From NCBI GenBank assembly GCA_963711835.1, contig CAVQFQ010000004.1, forward strand, positions 128,001 through 192,000: a DNA stretch of 64,000 bases. The letters are read 5' to 3'. Shown here piece after piece: positions 1 to 28,726 of this stretch. Source of the stretch: an uncultured delta proteobacterium (lineage in GTDB: Bacteria > Desulfobacterota > RBG-13-43-22). A model generated the notes under the pieces. The model ran no database searches and had not been told where the DNA came from. It saw only the letters and a list, made by a program, of their open reading frames with translations. Made by a program: the position numbers and the translations under genes. Each line of letters begins with the position of its first letter. Positions within the stretch are counted from its first letter, which is position 1.

Positions 1-1568
1 CAGATCTGGGGAAGAACGGTATACGACCCCTGCCCCATTTCCGTAATGCCGGTAAACAGCAGCACCGAGCCGTCCTCATGCACATAGACATTGGCCCCGC
101 AGCCGTCACCGGCGGTGCCGATGCTCGTCCGGTACCAGCCCATCCCGACGCCGATCCCCCGCCTTTTGGTCTTTTCGGTATCGATATAGCCGGTTTCCCG
201 GGAACGTCTCTCCCAGTCAAATTCCCGGGCGCAGGCCTCCAGGGTCTCCCGGAGTCCGACGCTCTGGTCCAGGATTTGGCCGGTAGCCGTGGCCGAGCCC
301 AGTTTAAAAGCGTTTTTTCGCCGAATCTCCAGGGGGTCCATCCCCAGTTCCAGGGCCAGTTCGTCCAGGATCTGTTCATGGGCGATATGGACCTGGGGAG
401 CCCCGAAGCCCCGCATGGCCCCGCCGTAGGGATGGTTGGTATAGCACAAGTAGGCGTCCACGCTGACGTTGGGGATTTCATACGGTCCGGGCATCATGAT
501 CATGGAATGGATATGGGATCCGCCGGCCGGGGGGATCACCGGCCCCAGGCTGGCGTAAGCCCCCTGCTCGTCGTAGATGGTCCCGGCCAGGGCCGTTAAG
601 GTCCCGTCTTTCCGGGCCCCCAGCTTGATGGTCATAATCATCGGGTGCCGTTTACAGGTTTGAATGGTTATCTCTTCCCGTTCCAGGGCCAGCCGCACCG
701 GCCGCCCCGTATGCCGGGCCAGCACCGCCGCCCGGCAGCCGATGTCGATCGGGGAATCCTCTTTGCCGCCGAAGCCGCCGCCCATGGGCACCTGGCGGAC
801 GCGCACCTGATTGATCGGCAGCCCCAGGACGGCCGCCAGGTTCCGCCGGGTTGTAAAAGGGGCCTGCATGGGACCTTCCACCAGCATGGTTCCGTCGGCC
901 TGGGGTACGGCCATGGTTACGTCCGGCTCGATATAGGCGTGCTCCAGGAAGGGCACCTGATAGGTCCGTTCGATGATGACTTCCGCTTCGCTCCAGCCCT
1001 TTTCCAGATCTCCTTTACGGAGTTTGTTTGAGGAGAGCAGGTTCCCCTTTTCATGAATCTTCGGGGCGTCATCCTTCAGGGCCTCACGGGGATCCAGCAC
1101 GGCCGGCAGGGATTCATACTCTACCTCGATGAGTTCCAGGGCCTGATGTGCGATCCTCTCCGTTTCGGCCGCCACCAGGGCCACGGCGTCCCCGACATAG
1201 CGGACCTTGTCTCCGCAGATCACCGGCTGGTCGGGGATGATGGCCCCGAAGCCGTTCCTTCCGGGCACATCCCGGGCGGTCAGGACCGCCGCTACCCCGG
1301 GGAGCGCTTTCGCTTTTTCGGTCCGGATCGACCGGATCAAAGCGTGGGGAAGAGGACTTCGCAGAATTTTTCCGTGAAGAAACCCCGCCTGCCCGTAATC
1401 CGCCCCATACATTAATTTCCCGGTGACCTTGAGCCGGGCATCGGTCCGCTGAACGGATTGGCCGGCCACCGCCAATTCAGCCTGGGGAGTTTGCAGGAGC
1501 CGTTGAAAATCCAATCTTTCCCTGGTAAGAACCTGGACTTCTTTTTTACCTTCGTCTTGGTTGCGCAT
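1..1568 (-). CDS. Xanthine dehydrogenase/aldehyde oxidoreductase family molybdopterin-binding subunit (runs off window start; absent from ORF track)
   Basis: Manual translation from ATG at 1568 gives RTDARLKVTGKLMYGADY, LRSPLPHALI, LEHAYIEP, MGGGFGGKE, AMRGFGAPQ, EMGQG motifs; open to position 1. Confidence 0.92.
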   Translation of the reverse strand, partial: MRNQDEGKKEVQVLTRERLDFQRLLQTPQAELAVAGQSVQRTDARLKVTGKLMYGADYGQAGFLHGKILRSPLPHALIRSIRTEKAKALPGVAAVLTARDVPGRNGFGAIIPDQPVICGDKVRYVGDAVALVAAETERIAHQALELIEVEYESLPAVLDPREALKDDAPKIHEKGNLLSSNKLRKGDLEKGWSEAEVIIERTYQVPFLEHAYIEPDVTMAVPQADGTMLVEGPMQAPFTTRRNLAAVLGLPINQVRVRQVPMGGGFGGKEDSPIDIGCRAAVLARHTGRPVRLALEREEITIQTCKRHPMIMTIKLGARKDGTLTALAGTIYDEQGAYASLGPVIPPAGGSHIHSMIMMPGPYEIPNVSVDAYLCYTNHPYGGAMRGFGAPQVHIAHEQILDELALELGMDPLEIRRKNAFKLGSATATGQILDQSVGLRETLEACAREFDWERRSRETGYIDTEKTKRRGIGVGMGWYRTSIGTAGDGCGANVYVHEDGSVLLFTGITEMGQGSYTVLPQI

Positions 1569-1610
1569 GCCTTCTACCCTTCGCTATCCCATCAAGGAAT
1601 AGACCAGCTC

Positions 1611-2084
1611 TTATTCCGTGGTTCCGGCAGCCGCCTGAACCGCCTGGACGATCTTCTGATAGCCGGTGCAGCGGCAGAGGACCCCGGAAAGGGCCTTTCG
1701 GGTTTCCTCTTTGCCCGGATTCGGATTTCTGCTCAGCAAGGCTTTGGCGTTCAGAATCATTCCCGGGGTGCAAAACCCGCATTGAACGGCCCCGGCTTCA
1801 ATAAAGGCCTGCTGGACCGGATCCAGGGAGCCGTCCGGCCGGGCCAGACCCTCGATAGTCGTTACGGACCGGCCGTGGACTTTCAGGGCCGGCAGGATGC
1901 AGGAATTCACCGGTTCGCTGTCCAGCAGGACCGTGCAGGCCCCGCATTCCCCCTCCCGGCAGCCGATCTTGGTGCCCTTCAGTCCCAAAACATCCCGGAG
2001 CAGGTCAACCAGCAGGGTGTCGGGGGATATCTTCAGGTTTACGACCCGGCCGTTTAATTGAAAATGGAGATCAAGGTTGCTCAT
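1611..2084 (-). CDS. Molybdenum hydroxylase (2Fe-2S) small subunit, CoxS-like
   Basis: GCREGECGACTV, QCGFCTPG, LCRCTGY motifs. Confidence 0.95.
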   Translation of the reverse strand: MSNLDLHFQLNGRVVNLKISPDTLLVDLLRDVLGLKGTKIGCREGECGACTVLLDSEPVNSCILPALKVHGRSVTTIEGLARPDGSLDPVQQAFIEAGAVQCGFCTPGMILNAKALLSRNPNPGKEETRKALSGVLCRCTGYQKIVQAVQAAAGTTE

Positions 2085-2097
2085 GGAACCCCTCTAT

Positions 2098-3021
2098 TTA
2101 TACAATGGAAAAACCGGCCTGATCCAGGGCCCTCTGAATGGACCGGCGAACCAGGACCTGGATCATTTCCTGCCGGTAATCGCAGGACCCCCGCAACAGA
2201 CTGTCCCGGGGACTGCATTCCTGGACCGCCGCCGCAGCCGCTTCCCGAATGACCTCCCGGGTAAGGGCGGCACCCGTCAGGCGGACCTCGGTCGACCGGG
2301 CCCGGTAGGGAGTCGGGGCCACCGGACCCAGGGCTACGGCGGTCTCGGCAAAACACTTTTTCTCCGGGTCCACTTTGACCACGGCCGCGGCCACCAGCAT
2401 GGGCAGGGTCAGGGCTTTGCGTTTGCTCAAACGGATGTAGCTGCCTCCCTGGTTGGGCTGGAGTCCTTTAAAACGAATTCCCGTGAGTATTTCCCGGGCG
2501 CCGTCCAGCACGGTTTTTCCCAGGGAAAGAAAAAAATCGGTCAGCGGGACCATCCTTTCTCCGGTCTTGGAGGCCAGGATGACCGAGGCCTGCAGGGCCA
2601 GCAGCGGGATACTGGTATCGGCGGCCGGCCGGGCGCTGATCAGGTTACCGGCTACGGTGGCGATGTTCCGGATCTGGGGAGAGCCCACGGCAGCGGCGCC
2701 GTCGGCCAGCAGGCCGGCCTTTTCCCGGATCAAGGGGGAAGCGGCGGTCTGGGCGTGGGTGACCAGGGCCCCCAGGCGGATTTCCTCCCCTACCTGGGTG
2801 ATGGTGTTCAGTCCCGGGAGGCGGCTGATGTCCACCAGGACCTCCGCCTCGATATCCCGCCGGCGCAGTCCGGGAATGATATCCGTTCCCCCGGCCAGGA
2901 CCCGGGCCTTTCCCTGAAAGCGCTCCAGGAGTTCCAGGGCTTCCGGCAGAGACTCCGGGAGGTGGTAGGCCTTTACCGGGATATCGTGGGACCAATGCAG
3001 TTCTTTAAAGGCAGTTGCCAT
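2098..3021 (-). CDS. Molybdenum hydroxylase FAD-binding medium subunit, CoxM-like
   Basis: LAGGTD, VGSPQIRNIATVAGNL motifs; operon context. Confidence 0.93.
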   Translation of the reverse strand: MATAFKELHWSHDIPVKAYHLPESLPEALELLERFQGKARVLAGGTDIIPGLRRRDIEAEVLVDISRLPGLNTITQVGEEIRLGALVTHAQTAASPLIREKAGLLADGAAAVGSPQIRNIATVAGNLISARPAADTSIPLLALQASVILASKTGERMVPLTDFFLSLGKTVLDGAREILTGIRFKGLQPNQGGSYIRLSKRKALTLPMLVAAAVVKVDPEKKCFAETAVALGPVAPTPYRARSTEVRLTGAALTREVIREAAAAAVQECSPRDSLLRGSCDYRQEMIQVLVRRSIQRALDQAGFSIV

Positions 3022-3030
3022 ATCACCCTC

Positions 3031-3744
3031 TCAGGTTTGAAGAGATTTTCCGGCCCGGATCCCCTTTTCCCGGGGTCCCGGGGCTTCCGTCCGGCCGGTC
3101 CTTTCGGAGGTCTCGGCAATGGCCTCCTGCATCCGGCGGTTATGCCGCCGCATCACCTGCTCCGCCTGCAGCGGATTTCGCTTACCGAAGGCTTCTACCA
3201 CTTGTTGATGATCGGAATACAGGTCGGGAAGAATGGGGGTAACGTCGCAGACCAAAGGACGGGACCGGCTTTTAATGATGTCCAGTTGTTCTTTGAGCAT
3301 CCAGTTGCCGCAGGAATCATACATAAGCTGGTGAAACTTGAAATCCGAAACGGAATAAGCGAGCAGGTCTTTTTTCCGGATGATCGCCGCCTGTTCAGCC
3401 AGGATATGCTTCATCTGGCTGACCGTTTCCGGATCCATCTTTTGAGAGGCCAGGGCGGCGGCCAGTCCTTCCAGGACCTCGCGGACCTGGTAGAGGTCCT
3501 GGGCCATCTCCAGGGTCATTACCGCCATCCGGATCCCTTGATTGGGGAGATGGGTGACCAATCCTTCTTTCTCCAACTGCTTCATGGCCTGGTGGATGGG
3601 AGTCCGGCTGACGCCGAGTTCTTTGGACAACTGTTCCAGGTTGATCCATTTCCCCGAAGAGAAACGGTGCGAGGCGATCATGTCCCTTAAGGACCGATAG
3701 GCCTGTTCCTTCAGGGTAAGCCGTTGGAGTCTGGAATCGGACAT
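3031..3744 (-). CDS. GntR family transcriptional regulator (FCD domain)
   Basis: LSKELGVSRTPI wHTH; YQVREVLE and DFKFHQ FCD motifs; ATG at 3744 preferred. Confidence 0.92.
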   Translation of the reverse strand: MSDSRLQRLTLKEQAYRSLRDMIASHRFSSGKWINLEQLSKELGVSRTPIHQAMKQLEKEGLVTHLPNQGIRMAVMTLEMAQDLYQVREVLEGLAAALASQKMDPETVSQMKHILAEQAAIIRKKDLLAYSVSDFKFHQLMYDSCGNWMLKEQLDIIKSRSRPLVCDVTPILPDLYSDHQQVVEAFGKRNPLQAEQVMRRHNRRMQEAIAETSERTGRTEAPGPREKGIRAGKSLQT

Positions 3745-3966
3745 GGGCAAGATTCTCTTAGGAGCAGCCTGCCTCGATATCCGATATAAGTCAACATAAA
3801 TTTAATTTTTAGTAAAATTTTAATTAGATTTTCCAAAAATCAAGACAGGAGAAGACTTCCCGCTTGACCGTCCCGGTCACCGGCAGTCCCGGCCTGAAAC
3901 CCCCTGCTTTCGGGAAAGGCCAACCTGTCCTATTATCCTGGCCATTTCCCCCGGACAGGCATCGGT

Positions 3967-4074: not shown

Positions 4075-4950
4075 ATGAAGGAAGACTGGCTGGCCAATGC
4101 CTATGAAGGGATGTCCCGACGGCAGTTTCTCGCGCGGATGAGCCTGGCGGGTTTCAGCCTCGCGGGCTTTGCGGCCGCAGCCGATCCGCTGGAGGGCGAA
4201 GTCATCACCACCCCCGCCCGGGGGCTTGTAGAGGGGGAAGGAAAAGTTCCCTGCGGCGATTTCCAGATCCCGATCTACGAGGCCCGTCCGGCAGCCCCCG
4301 GACGTTATCCGGTGGTGCTGGTAGTTCCCGAGATTTTTGGGATGCATGCCCACATCAAGGATGTCACCCGCCGATTTGCCCGGGAAGGCTTCCTGGGCAT
4401 CACTTTTGAGCCTTATGCGCGGGAAGGCGGCGTCCTGCACCTTCCCGACATAGCATCCGTGCGCAAGGTAGCGGACCAGGTTCCTGACGCACAGGTCATG
4501 GGGGACATAGACGCCATCGTGGCTTATGCCAAGGGGCATCCGGCAGGGCAGGCGGATCGGATCGGCCTGACGGGTTTCTGCCGGGGAGGGATGTACACCC
4601 TGCTCTTCGCGGCCCACAGCCGCGAGCTGAAGGCCGCCGTCGCCTGGTACGGGCAACTCCGGCCCCCCAAAACGCCAGGTGTCCGTTCGGCCGGACCCCT
4701 CGATCTGACCGCACAATTTAAAGCGCCCATCCTCGGCCTTTATGGAGAGGCGGACCTGGGCATTCCTGCAACCGACGTCAGGGAAATGGAAGCGGCCCTC
4801 AAGGCCGCCGGCCGGACGGCGGAATTCGTCCTTTATCCGGGGGCGCCGCATGCTTTTTATGCGGATTACCGCCCCAGTTATCGGGCGGAAGCCGCCGGGG
4901 ACGCCTGGCGACGCTGCCTGGCCTGGTTCAATAAATACCTGAAAGGGTAA
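4075..4950 (+). CDS. Dienelactone hydrolase family protein with Tat signal peptide
   Basis: SRRQFL twin-arginine motif, PEIFG, GFCRGG nucleophile, HAF; AAGGAG RBS before ATG 4075. Confidence 0.92.
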   Translation: MKEDWLANAYEGMSRRQFLARMSLAGFSLAGFAAAADPLEGEVITTPARGLVEGEGKVPCGDFQIPIYEARPAAPGRYPVVLVVPEIFGMHAHIKDVTRRFAREGFLGITFEPYAREGGVLHLPDIASVRKVADQVPDAQVMGDIDAIVAYAKGHPAGQADRIGLTGFCRGGMYTLLFAAHSRELKAAVAWYGQLRPPKTPGVRSAGPLDLTAQFKAPILGLYGEADLGIPATDVREMEAALKAAGRTAEFVLYPGAPHAFYADYRPSYRAEAAGDAWRRCLAWFNKYLKG

Positions 4951-5106
4951 AACAATAATTGCGCCGTGGTTAACCCGCCGTCAAGTTCTCACCGGGTTGG
5001 CGAAAGTGCTGGGTGGGGCTGTTTTGGCTTTTGTGCGCCATTGGATCGGGATGCCGGCAGTCCAAGCCCAGAATCCGCCAGCGTCCCGGATTTTTTTGCC
5101 CTCTGA

Positions 5107-5146
5107 TTTCAACTTGACTCTCCTTTTCTCCCTATTTTATACTCTC
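5107..5146 (+). promoter_or_regulatory. Sigma70-like promoter, copy 2 of the 40-bp direct repeat
   Basis: TTGACT (5114-5119) and TATACT (5138-5143) upstream of the MerB-like gene. Confidence 0.7.
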
Positions 5147-5236
5147 GCCATCAAAACCAACCTCTGAATAAGATCGGGATCATCGGAACAGAGCGCAGCT
5201 TTTCCAAACATAAAAACAAAAAAGGAGGACCAAGCC

Positions 5237-5944
5237 ATGAGTAATCCCACACTATTGGATCAGGCTTTTCAGACCATCATGAAGCGCATGGTGGAAACCG
5301 GCCAGGCCCCTTTCTACACGGAACTGGCTTCCGAACTCGGTCTTTCGGTGGAAGAAGGCAGAAAGACCCTCCACGATCTCTTCTCCTCCGGTATACCGGG
5401 ATGGCTTTACCCCCGAAGCGACCTCATCGTTTCCTTTGCGCCTTTTAACAACCTGCCCACTCAGTACCGCATCACCATTGAAGGCCATCAGAAATGGTTC
5501 GGGCAGTGAGCCTTTGAATCGCTGGCGGTCTGCTGGCTCTTCCCCGGTAAGAAAGTGACCATAGATTTTCCCTGTCTCGATTGCGGCGAATCCCTCCGGG
5601 TCGTGCTTCAGGATGGCCGGATACTGAATGACCGGGAATCGGCGGGTTATATGACTTACGTCTCCGTGCCTTTCTGGAAATGGGTTGAGGATCCAAGCTA
5701 TGCCTGAAGCACCATGAATCTCTTCCGGTCGGAAGAGCATGTGCGCAACTGGGCCTCCTATGTCGCAGGAACCGAGGAAGGGATAACGCCGCTGCCCGAT
5801 ATGCTAAAGCTTTTTTCCGGTCCCTATTTCAAACGGCGGATGGATGAGGACTATGTCTCCCATATCTTTGAATACGTCCGCGAGATGATCCCAACTATGA
5901 AAGAGATTAATAAGACGGGACCCTTCTGGAAGCGACCGAAATAG
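5237..5944 (+). CDS. MerB-like (organomercurial lyase fold) selenoprotein, 235 aa, two Sec residues (U91, U157)
   Basis: Single frame from ATG 5237 to TAG 5942 interrupted only by TGA 5507 (WFGQ-U-AFESL) and TGA 5705 (YA-U-STMNLF); N-terminal HTH, PF..PTQYRI and PCLDCGE motifs; SECIS-like hairpin after each TGA. Confidence 0.85.
5521..5537 (+). promoter_or_regulatory. Bacterial SECIS-like hairpin 1
   Basis: GCUGGC-GGUCU-GCUGGC stem with two G.U pairs; loop begins 17 nt after UGA 5507. Confidence 0.65.
5709..5744 (+). promoter_or_regulatory. Bacterial SECIS-like hairpin 2
   Basis: CUCUUCC-GGUC-GGAAGAG perfect 7-bp stem (5720-5737) on a lower CAUG/CAUG stem; loop begins 19 nt after UGA 5705. 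Confidence 0.8.
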
Positions 5945-6317
5945 GTCGGCTTGGCACTGGCAAAGAAAGGAACAAACCGACGAAAGGATTCGATAGACTG
6001 GCTTTCCTGGATGCCCTGGCCCGGCCAGGCTGATAAGTAGAAATTTTGGGATAGTGATGGAAATTAACCTGATCTAATTTAGAATGGTTCATCTTATGTC
6101 TTTACCATTCAATCCTTAAAAGCCGCCTGGTGGAATGGGAGCGGTGAGAGTTCAAAAAGGAGGGAAACTCGAAAGCGGTTCCTAATGCCCTCTCGCCTTG
6201 CCCAACGATTTCCATAATTATGGTGAGTGAGGAAAAGAATGCTGAAAACTTGCTGATTATAGAATCAAAGGAAATTGGAATGGCCGAGATCATAGATCAG
6301 GCCTTTAGGGATTGTGA

Positions 6318-7709
6318 TTGACCATGTCACCCTCTTACGATGTCATCATTATCGGTACCGGGCCTGCGGGGATATTCGCCGCCCTGGAGCTTATTAAGAA
6401 TCCCCGCCTGAAAATCCTCATGATCGAGAAAGGCAGCGACATCAAGGCCAGAAGTTGTCCCATAGCCGGGACGTCCGTTGCCTGTGTCCAGTGCGACCTC
6501 TGCAGCATCCTCTGCGGCTGGGGAGGGGCTGGGGCCTATAGCGATGGGAAACTCACCCTGACCTCGGAATTCGGGGGATGGCTTAAAGAGTATCTTTCCG
6601 AGGAAGATCTGGCCGCTCTGATCGAATATGTGGATTCGGTTTACCGCTTTTTCGGGGCCGGAGGAGATATTCACGGCCAGGACAAAGAGGGTCTGGCCCG
6701 TCTGAAGAAAAAAGCCGCCGGGTATAACCTGGAGCTTATTCCGGCATTGATACGGCATATCGGCACAGAGGTCTGCGGAGAAGTGTTGCGCAAAATCCGA
6801 GACACGCTGGAGGGCAAGGTTGAGCTGGTATTCGATTCGCCGGTACAGCAGATCCGGACCGTCGACGGCTTTGTTTCCGGGGTCATGACCGAAGACGGGC
6901 GGACCTTTGAGTCCCGGTTTGTTATCACCGCCGTTGGCCGGGAAGGGTCGACCTGGCTTTCCGGAGAAGCCAAACGGTTGGACCTTTCGGTCCAGAAGAA
7001 TCCGGTTGATATCGGGGTCAGGGTTGAACTTCCGGCAGCTATTCTGAAAGATATAACCGATGTGGCCTATGAGGGAAAGTTCATCTATTTCTCAAAAAAA
7101 TTTCACGACAAAATCAGAACTTTCTGCATGAATCCCTATGGAGAGGTGGTCAAGGAATACAGCGAAGGCATATTCAGCGTCAACGGGCACAGCTACAAAA
7201 ACAAAAAGACGGAAAATACGAACTTCGCCCTCCTGGTGAGTACCGATTTCACCAGACCCTTTAATGATCCTATATCCTATGGGAAAACCATCGCCGGCCT
7301 GGCCAACCTGCTCGGCGGGGGTGTCATCGTCCAACGGCTCGGGGATCTGAAGATGGGCAGACGGTCAACACCGGAGAGAATAGCCGAAGGCTCTGTGCGC
7401 CCCACCCTGGAAGACGCCACACCCGGAGACCTGAGCTTCGTGCTGCCCTACCGGCATCTCAGCAACCTTATGGAGATGCTCGAGGTGCTCGATAACGTGG
7501 CCCCCGGGGTGAACTCGGGTGATACGCTCCTTTACGGCGTAGAAGTCAAGTTCTACTCCATGAAGCTCAAGCTCACCCCTGGCCTTGAGACGGAAGTCAG
7601 GAATCTTTTCGCCGTCGGGGACGGTGCGGGAGTAACCCGCGGGTTGATCCAAGCCTCGATTTCAGGAGTCGTGGCGGCGCGTGAGGTTTTAAAAAGCGGC
7701 CAGGAGTAA
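6318..7709 (+). CDS. NAD(P)/FAD-dependent oxidoreductase with N-terminal Cys cluster
   Basis: IIGTGPAG Rossmann motif, GWGGAGAYSDGKL, RTFCMNPYG, GDGAGVTRGL. Confidence 0.9.
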   Translation: MTMSPSYDVIIIGTGPAGIFAALELIKNPRLKILMIEKGSDIKARSCPIAGTSVACVQCDLCSILCGWGGAGAYSDGKLTLTSEFGGWLKEYLSEEDLAALIEYVDSVYRFFGAGGDIHGQDKEGLARLKKKAAGYNLELIPALIRHIGTEVCGEVLRKIRDTLEGKVELVFDSPVQQIRTVDGFVSGVMTEDGRTFESRFVITAVGREGSTWLSGEAKRLDLSVQKNPVDIGVRVELPAAILKDITDVAYEGKFIYFSKKFHDKIRTFCMNPYGEVVKEYSEGIFSVNGHSYKNKKTENTNFALLVSTDFTRPFNDPISYGKTIAGLANLLGGGVIVQRLGDLKMGRRSTPERIAEGSVRPTLEDATPGDLSFVLPYRHLSNLMEMLEVLDNVAPGVNSGDTLLYGVEVKFYSMKLKLTPGLETEVRNLFAVGDGAGVTRGLIQASISGVVAAREVLKSGQE

Positions 7710-8232: not shown

Positions 8233-9042
8233 ATGGCCAAGGGGAAATCACAATATACCGATTTGCCAAGCTGGGTAGATGCCCGGCAGACTCAGGGTCT
8301 CTATTTCTTTACCAGGGAGGAGGCCCTGAAGGCCATAGGGTTCAGCGAGGATGCCTTTAAACAATCGGCGGCCCGGTTGGCCAAGAAGGGTAGAATCGTC
8401 CGGGTCCGTGGAGGCTTTTTCGTTATCGTTCCTTTGGAGTATGCCGCCACTGGCATGGTTCCCCCGGAATGGTTTGTTGGTGACCTGATGGAATATATCG
8501 GGCAACCTTTCTATGTGGGTTTGCTCAGTGCCGCGGTTTTCCATGGAGCGGCCCACCAGCAACCGCAGCAGTTCCAGGTAGTGACCACCGGACCTTTACG
8601 AGAGATCCGGATAAAAAGTCAGTCGATGCGATTTTTCGTGAAGACTGGGTTCGAGAAAACCCCCAGGACTCAATTCAAGGTCCAGACCGGGTTCATTCCT
8701 GTTTCCACACCTGAGGTTACTGTCTTTGATCTGCTGCGTTATGCCAGATCAATCGGAGGTCTTGACCGGATTTATACTGTGCTCCAGGAGTTGGGTGAAA
8801 AAATGGACCCTTCTAATCTCGTGGCCGCGGCCAAAGCGGATGGAAATCTGACCTATGCCCAGCGGGCCGGATGGTTATTGGAAAAGGCCGGTTTTTCGAA
8901 GGCTGTTGAAAAATTGGCCGACTGGTTGGTGAAAAAACATCCGGTTCTGGTCAAGCTGGATCCTGGTGTGAATATGAAGGATGCCCCAAGGGATAATCGT
9001 TGGGGTATTATAGCCAACACCACCGTGGAGGGGGACCTGTGA
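8233..9042 (+). CDS. Type IV toxin-antitoxin antitoxin, AbiEi family
   Basis: YVGLLSAAVFHGAAHQQPQQFQV, VSTPEVTVFDL motifs; GTGA overlap with toxin. Confidence 0.9.
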   Translation: MAKGKSQYTDLPSWVDARQTQGLYFFTREEALKAIGFSEDAFKQSAARLAKKGRIVRVRGGFFVIVPLEYAATGMVPPEWFVGDLMEYIGQPFYVGLLSAAVFHGAAHQQPQQFQVVTTGPLREIRIKSQSMRFFVKTGFEKTPRTQFKVQTGFIPVSTPEVTVFDLLRYARSIGGLDRIYTVLQELGEKMDPSNLVAAAKADGNLTYAQRAGWLLEKAGFSKAVEKLADWLVKKHPVLVKLDPGVNMKDAPRDNRWGIIANTTVEGDL

Positions 9043-9827
9043 TCCCCAAAGCACATATCGTGGCCTGGCGGCAGGTGGCGCCCTGGGTGTCCGATGCCCA
9101 GGTGGAACAGGATCTGATCATGAGCCGGGCCTTGGTTTGCATCTTTCAAAATTCAACATTAGCCCCCAGCCTGGCCTTCCGGGGTGGGACGGCCCTGCAC
9201 AAACTTCATTTCAAGAAGGCCAGGAGGTATTCCGAGGACATCGATCTGGTTCAGATTACTCCCGGTCCCATAGGGCCGGTCCTGGACGCCCTGAGGGGTG
9301 TATTGAACTCCTTCCTCGGGGAACCAAAAAGAAAGCTGGCGGAAGGGACGGTTACCTTAACCTATCGGATGGACTCGGAAGGCCCGCCAGTCATACCGAT
9401 GCGTCTTAAAATCGAAATCAATACCCGAGAGCACTTTTCTGTCATGGGGTTCGAGCACCGGCCCTATGAGGTCCGATCCCGCTGGTTTCAGGGGTCCTGC
9501 CGGATTACCACCTTCTCTCTCGAGGAATTGCTCGGCACCAAAGTGCGGGCCCTCTACCAGAGACGTAAGGGGCGGGATCTTTTCGACCTGTGGCTGGGAT
9601 TGACAGAGGGAAAGGCCAAGGCCGCGACGGTCGTTGAAATTTTCAAGGAGTATATGAAGGCCCAGGGTTTTAAGGTTAGACAGGAAGATTACGAAAAAAA
9701 TATTTTGGAGAAACTAAACCACCGTGGGTTTATCAGCGATTTGAAACCTCTGCTTCCTGTCGATCTGAATTATAACATTCAGGAAGCCTTTGGGTTAATG
9801 AGGAGGGAACTTGTCTTAAAAATATAA
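9039..9827 (+). CDS. Type IV toxin-antitoxin toxin, AbiEii nucleotidyltransferase
   Basis: QVEQDL, FRGGTALHK, RYSEDIDL, KGRDLFDL; GTG start at 9039 coupled to abiEi stop. Confidence 0.92.
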   Translation: MIPKAHIVAWRQVAPWVSDAQVEQDLIMSRALVCIFQNSTLAPSLAFRGGTALHKLHFKKARRYSEDIDLVQITPGPIGPVLDALRGVLNSFLGEPKRKLAEGTVTLTYRMDSEGPPVIPMRLKIEINTREHFSVMGFEHRPYEVRSRWFQGSCRITTFSLEELLGTKVRALYQRRKGRDLFDLWLGLTEGKAKAATVVEIFKEYMKAQGFKVRQEDYEKNILEKLNHRGFISDLKPLLPVDLNYNIQEAFGLMRRELVLKI

Positions 9828-10395: not shown

Positions 10396-10692
10396 ATAGC
10401 CCGCATGCACCCTGAGGATATCGAAGGACTGGAAGGCCCCATCGAGGGCGAAAGGAAGGTCTTTCGTTTCCTCCGGGAAGCGTCCCGGCCGGACCAGGAT
10501 TTTATCGGTTGGTATGAGCCTGCCATCGGGGGAAAAGGTAAAGAACCCGACTTCGTCCTTTTCAGCAAACAGCAGGGCCTGCTGGTCCTTGAAGTCAAGG
10601 ACTGGCTGATCGATCAGATCGAGGAGGCCGGCCCCCGGACCTTCGACCTGAATGGAAGGCATGAGATTCCCTTTGAATTGGGTCATAAATAG
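10396..10692 (+). pseudogene. Truncated NERD-domain nuclease, copy 2
   Basis: EPDFVLFSKQQGLLVLEVKDW PD-(D/E)xK motif; only about 95 aa; start codon of copy 1 (ATG) is ATA here. Confidence 0.75.
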
Positions 10693-10734
10693 ATGTATGA
10701 TGTTTTAAAGATTAAATGAAATGGAGGTTGAGGC

Positions 10735-10944
10735 ATGAAGGGTAAGGCTAAACGGAATGCTCCTGGGATTGTTCTCAGAGAGGGTAAACCCTCAGCCGTG
10801 ATCCTTGACATTGATGACTATCGAGAAATGTTGGAACGTTTGGAGAACCTCGATGATTTAACTATGCTCAAAGAAATGAGGAAGAAGCCCCTTAAATTCA
10901 GAAAGTTAGAAGACTTCTTAACGGAGTATCAGCCCGGTGTATGA
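10735..10944 (+). CDS. Type II antitoxin, Phd/YefM-like
   Basis: REGKPSAVILDIDDYREMLERLE motif; overlaps downstream relE-like gene. Confidence 0.8.
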   Translation: MKGKAKRNAPGIVLREGKPSAVILDIDDYREMLERLENLDDLTMLKEMRKKPLKFRKLEDFLTEYQPGV

Positions 10945-27172: not shown

Positions 27173-28726
27173 ATGACTAATGAAGAGCGTATCAGGGAAT
27201 TAATCGAATTGAACGCCCAGGCCGAGTTGGGCGGGGGCCAGGATAAGATTGACAGCCAGCATCAAAAGGGCAAATTAACCGCCCGGGAACGCGTCCAATA
27301 TCTCCTGGACCCCGGGACCTTTGAGGAATTTGACCGGTTTGTCGTCCACCGCTGTTATGATTTCGACATGGAAAAACAGAAGATCTCCGGCGACGGGGTT
27401 GTTACCGGCTATGGGCGTATCAACGGCCGGCTGGTCTATGTCTTTTCCCAGGATTTTACCGTTTTCGGCGGAAGCCTGAGTGGTCCCTTCGGAGAAAAGG
27501 TCTGCAAAGTCATGGACCTGGCCTTACGGAACGGCGCCCCGGTGATCGGATTAAATGACTCGGGAGGAGCCCGGATCCAGGAAGGGGTGGTCAGCCTGGG
27601 CAGCTATGGGGATATCTTCAGAAGGAATGTCCAGTGTTCCGGAATTATCCCCCAGATCTCGGCCATCATGGGCCCCTGTGCCGGGGGAGCCGTCTATTCG
27701 CCGGCCATTACCGATTTTATCATCATGGTTGAAAAGACCAGCCATATGTTTATCACCGGACCTCAGGTCATTAAAGCGATCACCCATGAAGACGTGGAAC
27801 CGGAGGCCCTGGGCGGAGCTATTCGGCACAACACCACCAGTGGGGTGGCCCATTTGGCGGCCAAAACCGACCAGCAGGCCCTGGATATGATCCGGGAGCT
27901 GCTTTCCTTCCTTCCCTCGAACTGCAACGAAAAACCGCCCCTCAAGGAAACGCAGGACGACCCCGACCGGCTGGATATGAACCTCCGCACCATAATCCCG
28001 GATAACCCCCGTGTCCCTTACGACATGAAAAAAATCATCCTTTCAGTAGTCGACGACCACTACTTTTTTGAAACCCAGAAACTATACGCCACCAACATGA
28101 TTGTCGGCTTTGCCCGTCTGAACGGCATGCCGGTCGGGATCGTGGCCAACCAGCCCCGGTCTCTGGCCGGCTGCCTGGACATCAATGCTTCCGATAAGTG
28201 CGCCCGATTTGTCCGCTTTTGCGATTGTTTCAATATTCCCGTTGTCACCTTTGTGGATGTGCCCGGGTTCCTGCCCGGGGTAGCCCAGGAGTACGGCGGG
28301 ATCATCCGCCACGGGGCTAAAATTATTTATGCCTATTGCGATGCCTCGGTCCCCAAGGTTACCGTCATTACCCGCAAGGGCTACGGCGGGGCTTACGATG
28401 TGATGGGCAGCAAACACCACGGCGGGGACATCAATTATGCCTATCCCATGGCTGAAATCGCGGTCATGGGTCCTGAAGGGGCGGTCCCGATTGTCTTCCG
28501 GAACCAGATCAAGGAAGCGGCCGATCCGGAAAAAACCCGGCAGGAATTGATCGAGGAGTACCGGCGGACCTTTGCCAGCCCTTACAAGGCCGCCGAATTG
28601 GGATATATCGACGAAATTATCCTGCCCGAATACACCCGTCCCAAATTGATCCGGGCCCTGGAATCCCTGAAAACCAAGGTCGATGTCCGCAGTCTCCCGC
28701 GGCGGCATGGGAATATACCACTTTAA
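27173..28726 (+). CDS. Methylmalonyl-CoA/propionyl-CoA carboxyltransferase subunit
   Basis: [33 protein letters not shown]. Confidence 0.95.

Follow-up and report, generated by a model that had tools for sequence, protein, structure and literature searches.

A MerB-like gene family of uncultured Desulfobacterota with predicted selenocysteine at both catalytic cysteine positions

In this study, we describe a gene of an uncultured delta proteobacterium (Desulfobacterota, RBG-13-43-22) in which two in-frame TGA codons occupy the positions of the two catalytic cysteines of the organomercury lyase MerB. Selenocysteine (Sec, U) is almost certainly inserted at both of them, codons 91 and 157. This was the central claim of a preliminary description of the DNA, and it is borne out by the alignment with MerB and by TGA in 160 of 160 best-match loci, recoding being predicted from these. 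Sec-containing homologues of MerB (SaoL) are already published; the double-Sec family is uncatalogued in the accessible parts of the selenoprotein lists searched. The selenoprotein catalogue hereby gains one or two families.

Gene structure and predicted recoding of the two TGA codons

The window, that is the whole stretch of DNA analysed, comprises 64,000 nucleotides (assembly GCA_963711835.1, contig CAVQFQ010000004.1, positions 128,001 to 192,000), and coordinates refer to it unless a locus is named. Two ORFs, 5237-5509 (90 aa) and 5714-5944 (76 aa), lie in the same reading frame. With TGA read as U, 5237-5944 of the plus strand forms a single open frame of 235 aa with TAG as stop, in which 65 codons separate U91 (5507-5509) from U157 (5705-5707); the stop-free junction of both ORFs, proposed earlier, is seen in this reading. 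The residue contexts are Q-U-A-F-E at U91 and YA-U-STMNLF at U157. The two short 'hypothetical' ORFs are very likely a single gene for a MerB relative. Its features are as follows.

5114..5143 (+), candidate sigma-70-type promoter, TTGACT-18 nt-TATACT (consensus match only, 10 of 12)
5223..5228 (+), Shine-Dalgarno sequence AGGAGG, 8 nt upstream of the ATG (from sequence)
5237..5944 (+), 235-codon MerB-fold gene with two in-frame TGA and a TAG end (PF03243, predicted structure, structure matches)
5507..5509 (+), TGA codon 91, predicted Sec, MerB Cys96 position (TGA in 160 of 160 loci, MerB alignment)
5516..5518 (+), Glu94 at the position of the MerB catalytic Asp99 (Glu in 160 of 160, MerB alignment)
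5521..5537 (+), SECIS-like hairpin 1, stem 5521-5526/5532-5537, loop GGUCU (pairing, codon freeze, loop as in the fdh SECIS)
5573..5584 (+), Cys113-Leu-Asp-Cys116, Cys113 equivalent to MerB Cys117 (alignment; putative metal binding)
5705..5707 (+), TGA codon 157, predicted Sec, position of MerB Cys159 and of the SaoL Sec (160 of 160 loci, alignment)
5720..5737 (+), SECIS-like hairpin 2, 7-bp stem, GGUC loop (pairing, compensatory changes in relatives)

Shine-Dalgarno-like sites also precede most relatives of the gene. Its neighbours encode a dienelactone-hydrolase family protein and an FAD-dependent oxidoreductase at distances of 287 and 376 nt, and the gene looks like a transcription unit of its own. 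The putative promoter shows no dyad of the type which we take to be a MerR operator. Rfam gave no matches over 4900-6400, and none of the public sequencing runs contained half of the words of the gene. In three RNA libraries of one sediment study, contigs of relatives run across both TGA regions; these were not counted as expression, since they belong to other organisms and carry-over of DNA is possible. Elsewhere in the window, 1-3750 (-) encodes a GntR regulator followed by FAD and 2Fe-2S subunits of the xanthine-dehydrogenase family, while 8233-9827 (+) and 10405-10944 (+) hold an AbiEi/AbiEii type IV toxin-antitoxin pair, a short NERD-domain ORF and a Phd/YefM-like antitoxin.

The comparison of relatives rests on 160 loci, composed of the best 80 of 186 relatives from a scan of genome collections (at 61-88% identity and, going by record titles, mostly MAGs of Desulfobacterota) and the best 80 of 560 from a metagenome scan; these are best-match sets and not a random sample. 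Both sites are TGA, with no further stop, in 80 of the 80 genome loci, and likewise in all 80 metagenome loci. The codons of five invariant Trp residues (56, 87, 100, 149 and 231) are TGG in 80/80 genome loci, with the same outcome in 80/80 from metagenomes. A search for Sec machinery in the organism's own genome found selA, selB and selD above profile cut-offs, selD with an in-frame TGA of its own, and a tRNA-Sec(UCA) (selC) in addition to a normal tRNA-Trp(CCA). Among other carriers, 28 of 30 have selA; both misses have selB and one of them also selD. Since selA occurs in 283 of 301 genomes of the phylum, this co-occurrence carries no information.

Protein databases hold the family in several forms. 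Among the 120 protein matches listed of 218, 53 have Trp at both sites (W/W), 61 have Cys at site 1 and end exactly at site 2, 3 are Cys/Cys and 3 are of other types; Cys at site 1 thus amounts to 64 of 120. The 61 proteins, of 155 aa, would represent a form in which Cys occupies site 1 and Sec site 2, as judged from their end position. Because Cys/Cys forms occur within the family (3 of the 120 listed), we regard both TGA sites as Cys/Sec sites, in agreement with the expectation that TGA would align with Cys in homologues, as it does with Cys96 and Cys159 of MerB. The scattered Cys/Cys forms inside the family are consistent with reversion. Homologues with Trp had been named beforehand as evidence against Sec. 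Such proteins do exist, as the 53 W/W entries show, and to this extent the objection stands; at the level of DNA it fails, with TGG at these sites in none of the 160 loci, and for this reason the W/W entries most likely stem from gene callers that translated TGA as Trp. Between W/W proteins and DNA loci there were no exact links, the best reaching 91% identity.

Could the TGAs be true stops or Trp codons, so that the locus would yield split peptides, be a pseudogene or follow another genetic code? The databases do contain pieces of 90, 155 and 76 aa besides full-length W/W entries. We nevertheless hold this to be highly improbable, as both TGAs persist in all 160 loci with no other stops, Trp is always TGG at the five invariant positions, a normal tRNA-Trp(CCA) occurs beside a tRNA-Sec in the genome, and the codons of the SECIS elements are frozen. 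Moreover, the middle segment of 65 codons has no listed start of its own, yet holds the invariant residues Cys113 and Trp149.

Concerning the hairpins, the GGUC loops 17-19 nt after the TGAs were seen as first described. The loop of hairpin 1 starts 17 nt after the TGA on a 6-bp stem including two G-U pairs, that of hairpin 2 after 19 nt on a perfect 7-bp stem. At each hairpin the inner five pairs are intact in 157 of 160 loci. Two-sided changes occur at three pairs of hairpin 2, in 17, 4 and 1 loci, related loci not being independent; hairpin 1 shows none among the 160. At seven stem-loop codons the majority-codon fraction is 0.77-1.0; for comparison, 60 further degenerate codons that are also conserved have a median of 0.44 (160 loci). 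Alone the hairpins are weak evidence, because the folding energy of pieces of 64-66 nt is no better than expected by chance (z 0.16 and -1.23) and a loose scan finds 102 SECIS-like sites genome-wide. The Sec codon of a formate dehydrogenase (G000:C19, minus strand, TGA at 27640) served as internal control and has a GGUC-loop SECIS of the same design.

Fold, active-site residues and relation to MerB and SaoL

The readthrough protein matches Pfam PF03243 with 65.1 bits (gathering threshold 27) over residues 72-192, so that the HMM search suggested in the preliminary description covers both TGAs. An AlphaFold (AF2) model from a 64-row alignment (pLDDT 96) has the MerB/NosL fold with an N-terminal winged helix. 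The predicted structure resembles only MerB and MerB2, with Foldseek (MerB E 2e-9, TM 0.59-0.62, identity to MerB 16-20%) as well as with VIA (Z 16.4 and 15.1 for MerB/MerB2, next match 4.2). Over its entire length the chain has the fold of canonical MerB (R831b; PDB 3F0O, 3F2F, 1S6L; NF033555, NF009710) and of Bacillus MerB2 (PDB 5C17). When the protein is aligned by profile to solved MerB structures, U91 falls at C96, E94 at D99, C113 at C117 and U157 at C159, so all three catalytic positions and the structural Cys117 are occupied in register. Canonical MerB has Cys96, Asp99, Cys159 and Cys117, whereas the window protein has Sec, Glu, Sec and Cys, which is chemically analogous but not identical. 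U91, E94 and U157 are invariant in 160 of 160 loci, which upholds the earlier proposal of a Glu in place of the catalytic Asp; Glu at position 99 is also found in Cys-only sister clades. The window protein further differs from MerB in having Gln (the invariant Gln90) for Trp95, which precedes Cys96, in lacking Cys160 and in about 30 additional C-terminal residues. The pocket residues Gln90, Asn71, Trp149 and Trp231 are invariant and differ from MerB.

The CLDC motif, previously taken as an extra, is not special, because Cys113 is MerB's own Cys117 and the CxxC is common to SaoL and Cys-only sisters. Together with the invariant His168, Cys113 and Cys116 probably represent what is left of a zinc-knuckle site, with putative metal binding. 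Its fourth ligand, a Cys in SaoL and in several sisters, would correspond here to Arg164, within SECIS 2. The accessible text of PMC4999995 derives the MerB fold from duplicated treble-clef zinc fingers.

Even though its anatomy is MerB-like, the window protein scores far below the cut-offs of the NCBIfam models for MerB (NF009710, 23.2 bits versus 193) and SaoL (NF040728, 31.5 bits versus 140). For NF033555 no match was reported at E 0.01, and none of 24 relatives scored reached the MerB and SaoL cut-offs. The window protein is therefore a member of neither family. With SaoL, as described in the accessible part of Haft and Gwadz (bioRxiv 10.1101/2022.07.06.499078), it shares the MerB fold, Sec at the Cys159 position, the CxxC at the Cys117 knuckle and anaerobic hosts. 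In SaoL a single Sec stands in a CU motif, with Cys/Asp at positions 96/99 and a nine-gene SAO locus, whereas the window protein has two Sec, no CU and Glu, its motifs being U-x-x-E at site 1 and A-U-S at site 2, and its family is without a conserved locus. None of nine window neighbours scanned belongs to the Sao families. In quick trees the window family stands apart from SaoL; score, motifs and tree place support the earlier suggestion of a distinct subfamily.

MerB-like '99Ser' and '117alt' variants (Christakis et al. 2021, PMC8261052) likewise have altered signature residues, often without merA as here; the accessible part of that work describes no Glu99 or Sec variant. Surveys of merB which require Cys96, Asp99 and Cys159 in called proteins cannot see the window family, and they miss it because databases contain it only in fragments or with Trp called by mistake. 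In the accessible parts of selenoprotein lists, the sole MerB-like row among 119 families (2026, PMC13188914) is SaoL, with CU and one Sec, and both MerB rows of deep-Sep (PMC12013277) are CU proteins. A double-Sec MerB was not found in the literature searched, including the accessible text of PMC9312934; most subscription journals lay outside this search.

A second double-Sec clade and other MerB-like relatives

Weak matches to the SaoL model which contained TGA led to a second clade with Sec-x-x-Asp ... Sec, here called clade B (L189:1312-2055 (+); also L179, L181, L182, L185, L186 and L193-L206). It comprises 17 loci in 16 of 301 genomes, with TGA at both sites in 17 of 17, one copy being frameshifted; six genomes carry both clade B and the window family, and the window's own genome has no clade B. 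Clade B has 94 protein matches. No NCBIfam model scores above its cut-off on the clade. Clade B resembles the window family in its TGAs at both catalytic positions and in a near-identical SECIS at site 2, but it keeps Asp99, shows 22% identity to the window protein and has a site-1 hairpin of its own (loop CGUGC, about 27 nt from the TGA). Directly upstream, a MarR-type regulator was found at four of 14 loci, a MerR-type HTH at two and a methyltransferase at two. Clade B is new here and unnamed in the sources searched.

Quick trees place the window family among Cys-only sisters and clade B nearer to MerB and SaoL. A tree uniting both double-Sec clades is modestly rejected (p-AU 0.036; 33 rows, long branches). 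Two separate origins of the double-Sec state are likely on these trees. Judged by the relatives at hand, Sec appears to have entered MerB-like active sites several times, namely in SaoL, in an L173-type gene and in clade B.

The L173 gene (L173:2946-3563 (+)) is of MerB type with W-C-A-V-D and has, at the Cys159 position, a TGA with a GGUC-loop hairpin (predicted Sec) and no CU motif. It lies below the SaoL and MerB cut-offs, with a merE-like ORF about 1.6 kb downstream. L183 / L207 (G156:C50) is another single-Sec MerB-like gene outside SaoL, in which site 1 reads C-A-L-D and site 2 is Sec. Cys-only sister clades of the same phylum (L166-L172) have C-x-x-E and an insertion after the winged helix.

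Distribution, genomic context and candidate functions

Among 301 genomes sampled evenly from the host phylum, 36 gave matches, of which 31 were counted as family (29 with both TGAs, 2 with N-terminal fragments) and 5 distant sisters were set aside; SaoL was found in 1 of 301. The gene is carried by 8 of 10 genomes of the host's own family. Three of five genomes checked hold two to three copies, and L050:5121-6702 is a tandem pair of double-TGA paralogues.

Neighbourhoods were analysed by ORF clustering of 80, later 160 loci, and sets of 94, 69 and 13 selected neighbours were searched with Pfam/NCBIfam. No neighbour is conserved across lineages among the 160 loci, and none occurs in more than 16. 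The commonest recurrent one, DUF169 (16 of 160), is essentially of one lineage, its proteins being 85-100% identical except one; acr3 was found in 2, copA in 1 and a merE-like gene in 0 of 160. A shared operator was absent across 118 de-duplicated upstream regions. At one locus (L045:4802-7686) the family member lies between an acr3 arsenite exporter and DUF169, with two Fe-S-domain proteins and a thioredoxin-like ORF upstream. The window's own genome (89% complete) differs from the setting of MerB in having no MerA above cut-off, no MerR and no MerT, which extends to the whole genome the preliminary observation that no merA, merR or merT is nearby; it has no hgcA either. The gene hgcA is present in 17 of 31 carriers versus 75 of 270 other genomes of the sample. 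Within the same families, with membership read by hand, the numbers are 17 of 31 versus 17 of 44 (Mantel-Haenszel OR 2.0, p 0.41), and the link was dropped. Since there is no conserved neighbour or operator and the excess of hgcA is lost within families, the context neither supports nor excludes mercury.

By analogy to MerB, we tentatively favour an organomercury lyase or scavenger which acts on its own in anaerobes and relies on selenolates, with a confidence a little short of even. In MerB, R-Hg+ is held between two thiolates and Asp99 protonates the carbon, so that two chalcogenolates and an acid are needed (accessible part of PMC10114901). The selenolate of Sec91 would capture R-Hg+ from thiol- or sulfide-bound pools, out-competing those ligands, and Sec157 would form a Se-Hg-Se bridge which weakens the Hg-C bond. 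Glu94, replacing Asp99, would then donate a proton with release of R-H (methane from methylmercury). Hg(II) would be handed to cellular thiols or sulfide instead of MerA, and on this proposal no mer operon would be needed; turnover may be slow. According to the accessible texts, selone mimics of MerB cleave Hg-C bonds faster than their sulfur analogues (PMC11639659), and selenols are the preferred targets of methylmercury (PMC13664848).

The predicted fold, found in MerB only, and the aligned catalytic positions, invariant in 160 of 160 loci, argue for the lyase; the hosts, mostly Desulfobacterota MAGs, and hgcA in 17 of 31 carriers count for it as well. Against it count the low identity to MerB (16-20%), the change of Asp99 to Glu and of Trp95 to an invariant Gln; a literature search found no paper on an Asp99-to-Glu change in MerB. 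The lack of mer, hgc or other conserved neighbours and of hgcA in the own genome likewise counts against the lyase, and two to three copies per genome are odd for a trace toxin. With at most 32 candidates scored in each genome, just 1 of 30 other carriers has a MerA above cut-off, which leaves the release of the product from a Se-Hg-Se site unexplained.

The level of methylmercury in sediments is set by degradation as much as by formation, and for mer-independent demethylation by anaerobes no strain or pathway has been identified, according to the accessible part of a review (PMC10114901). The window family is a concrete candidate enzyme for an assay of carbon-mercury bond cleavage. It is conceivable, if doubtful, that MerA-independent methylmercury demethylases evolved twice in anaerobic sediment bacteria, as Sec-x-x-Glu and as Sec-x-x-Asp, escape all merB surveys through truncation at UGA by gene callers, and account for part of the unexplained loss of methylmercury in anoxic sediments.

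The invariant pocket of Gln90, Asn71, Trp149 and Trp231, unlike that of MerB, would also suit a di-Sec lyase for another organometal(loid), such as methylated tin, lead, antimony or arsenic(III), with Glu94 and pocket tuned to the substrate. The paralogues suggest several substrates, acr3 lies directly upstream at one locus, and MerB is reportedly able to bind organotin and organolead compounds, in work attributed to Wahba in 2017. We consider such a lyase unlikely, as acr3 occurs in just 2 and copA in 1 of 160 loci and no ars or other metal operon recurs.

The missing acceptor MerA would fit a non-catalytic or single-turnover sink or chaperone for soft metals, in which Hg(II), Cu(I), Ag(I) or R-Hg+ would be caught by the two selenolates, sparing the cell's many selenoenzymes. 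The fold is common to the copper chaperone NosL (VIA Z 3.9, weak; shared origin in the accessible part of PMC4999995), and Asp99 variants of MerB are inactive and can bind Cu, according to the parts available of PMC8261052 and PMC10114901. The sink is made improbable by the acidic residue at position 94, which persists in 160 of 160 loci and also in Cys-only sisters as a catalytic residue would, and by the cost of two Sec per protein for a sacrificial role.

The neighbours, among which catabolic and redox enzymes are frequent and a metal-resistance context is absent, bring up metal-free selenium chemistry. The Sec pair would cycle via a diselenide with Glu94 as proton donor, for instance in a deiodinase-like dehalogenation of aryl halides or in the reduction of S/Se substrates. 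Protonolysis of Hg-C bonds and Sec-mediated dehalogenation are formally alike. Such neighbours are however not recurrent across lineages and common in genomes of this kind, no dedicated reductase is linked, and we know of no MerB-fold protein with metal-free selenium or dehalogenase chemistry; of the functions weighed here we find this one hard to credit. Even if the substrate of the proposed lyase is not mercury, the occurrence of Sec at both ligand positions in two lineages offers a natural test of selenium in soft-metal catalysis.

About 2,300 metagenome stretches, by estimate, match the patterns of the family. A full-length match of 25% identity, 'hypothetical' or unannotated, was found on megaplasmids of the Ralstonia solanacearum complex (H1-H20), with 98 Ralstonia among 149 records.
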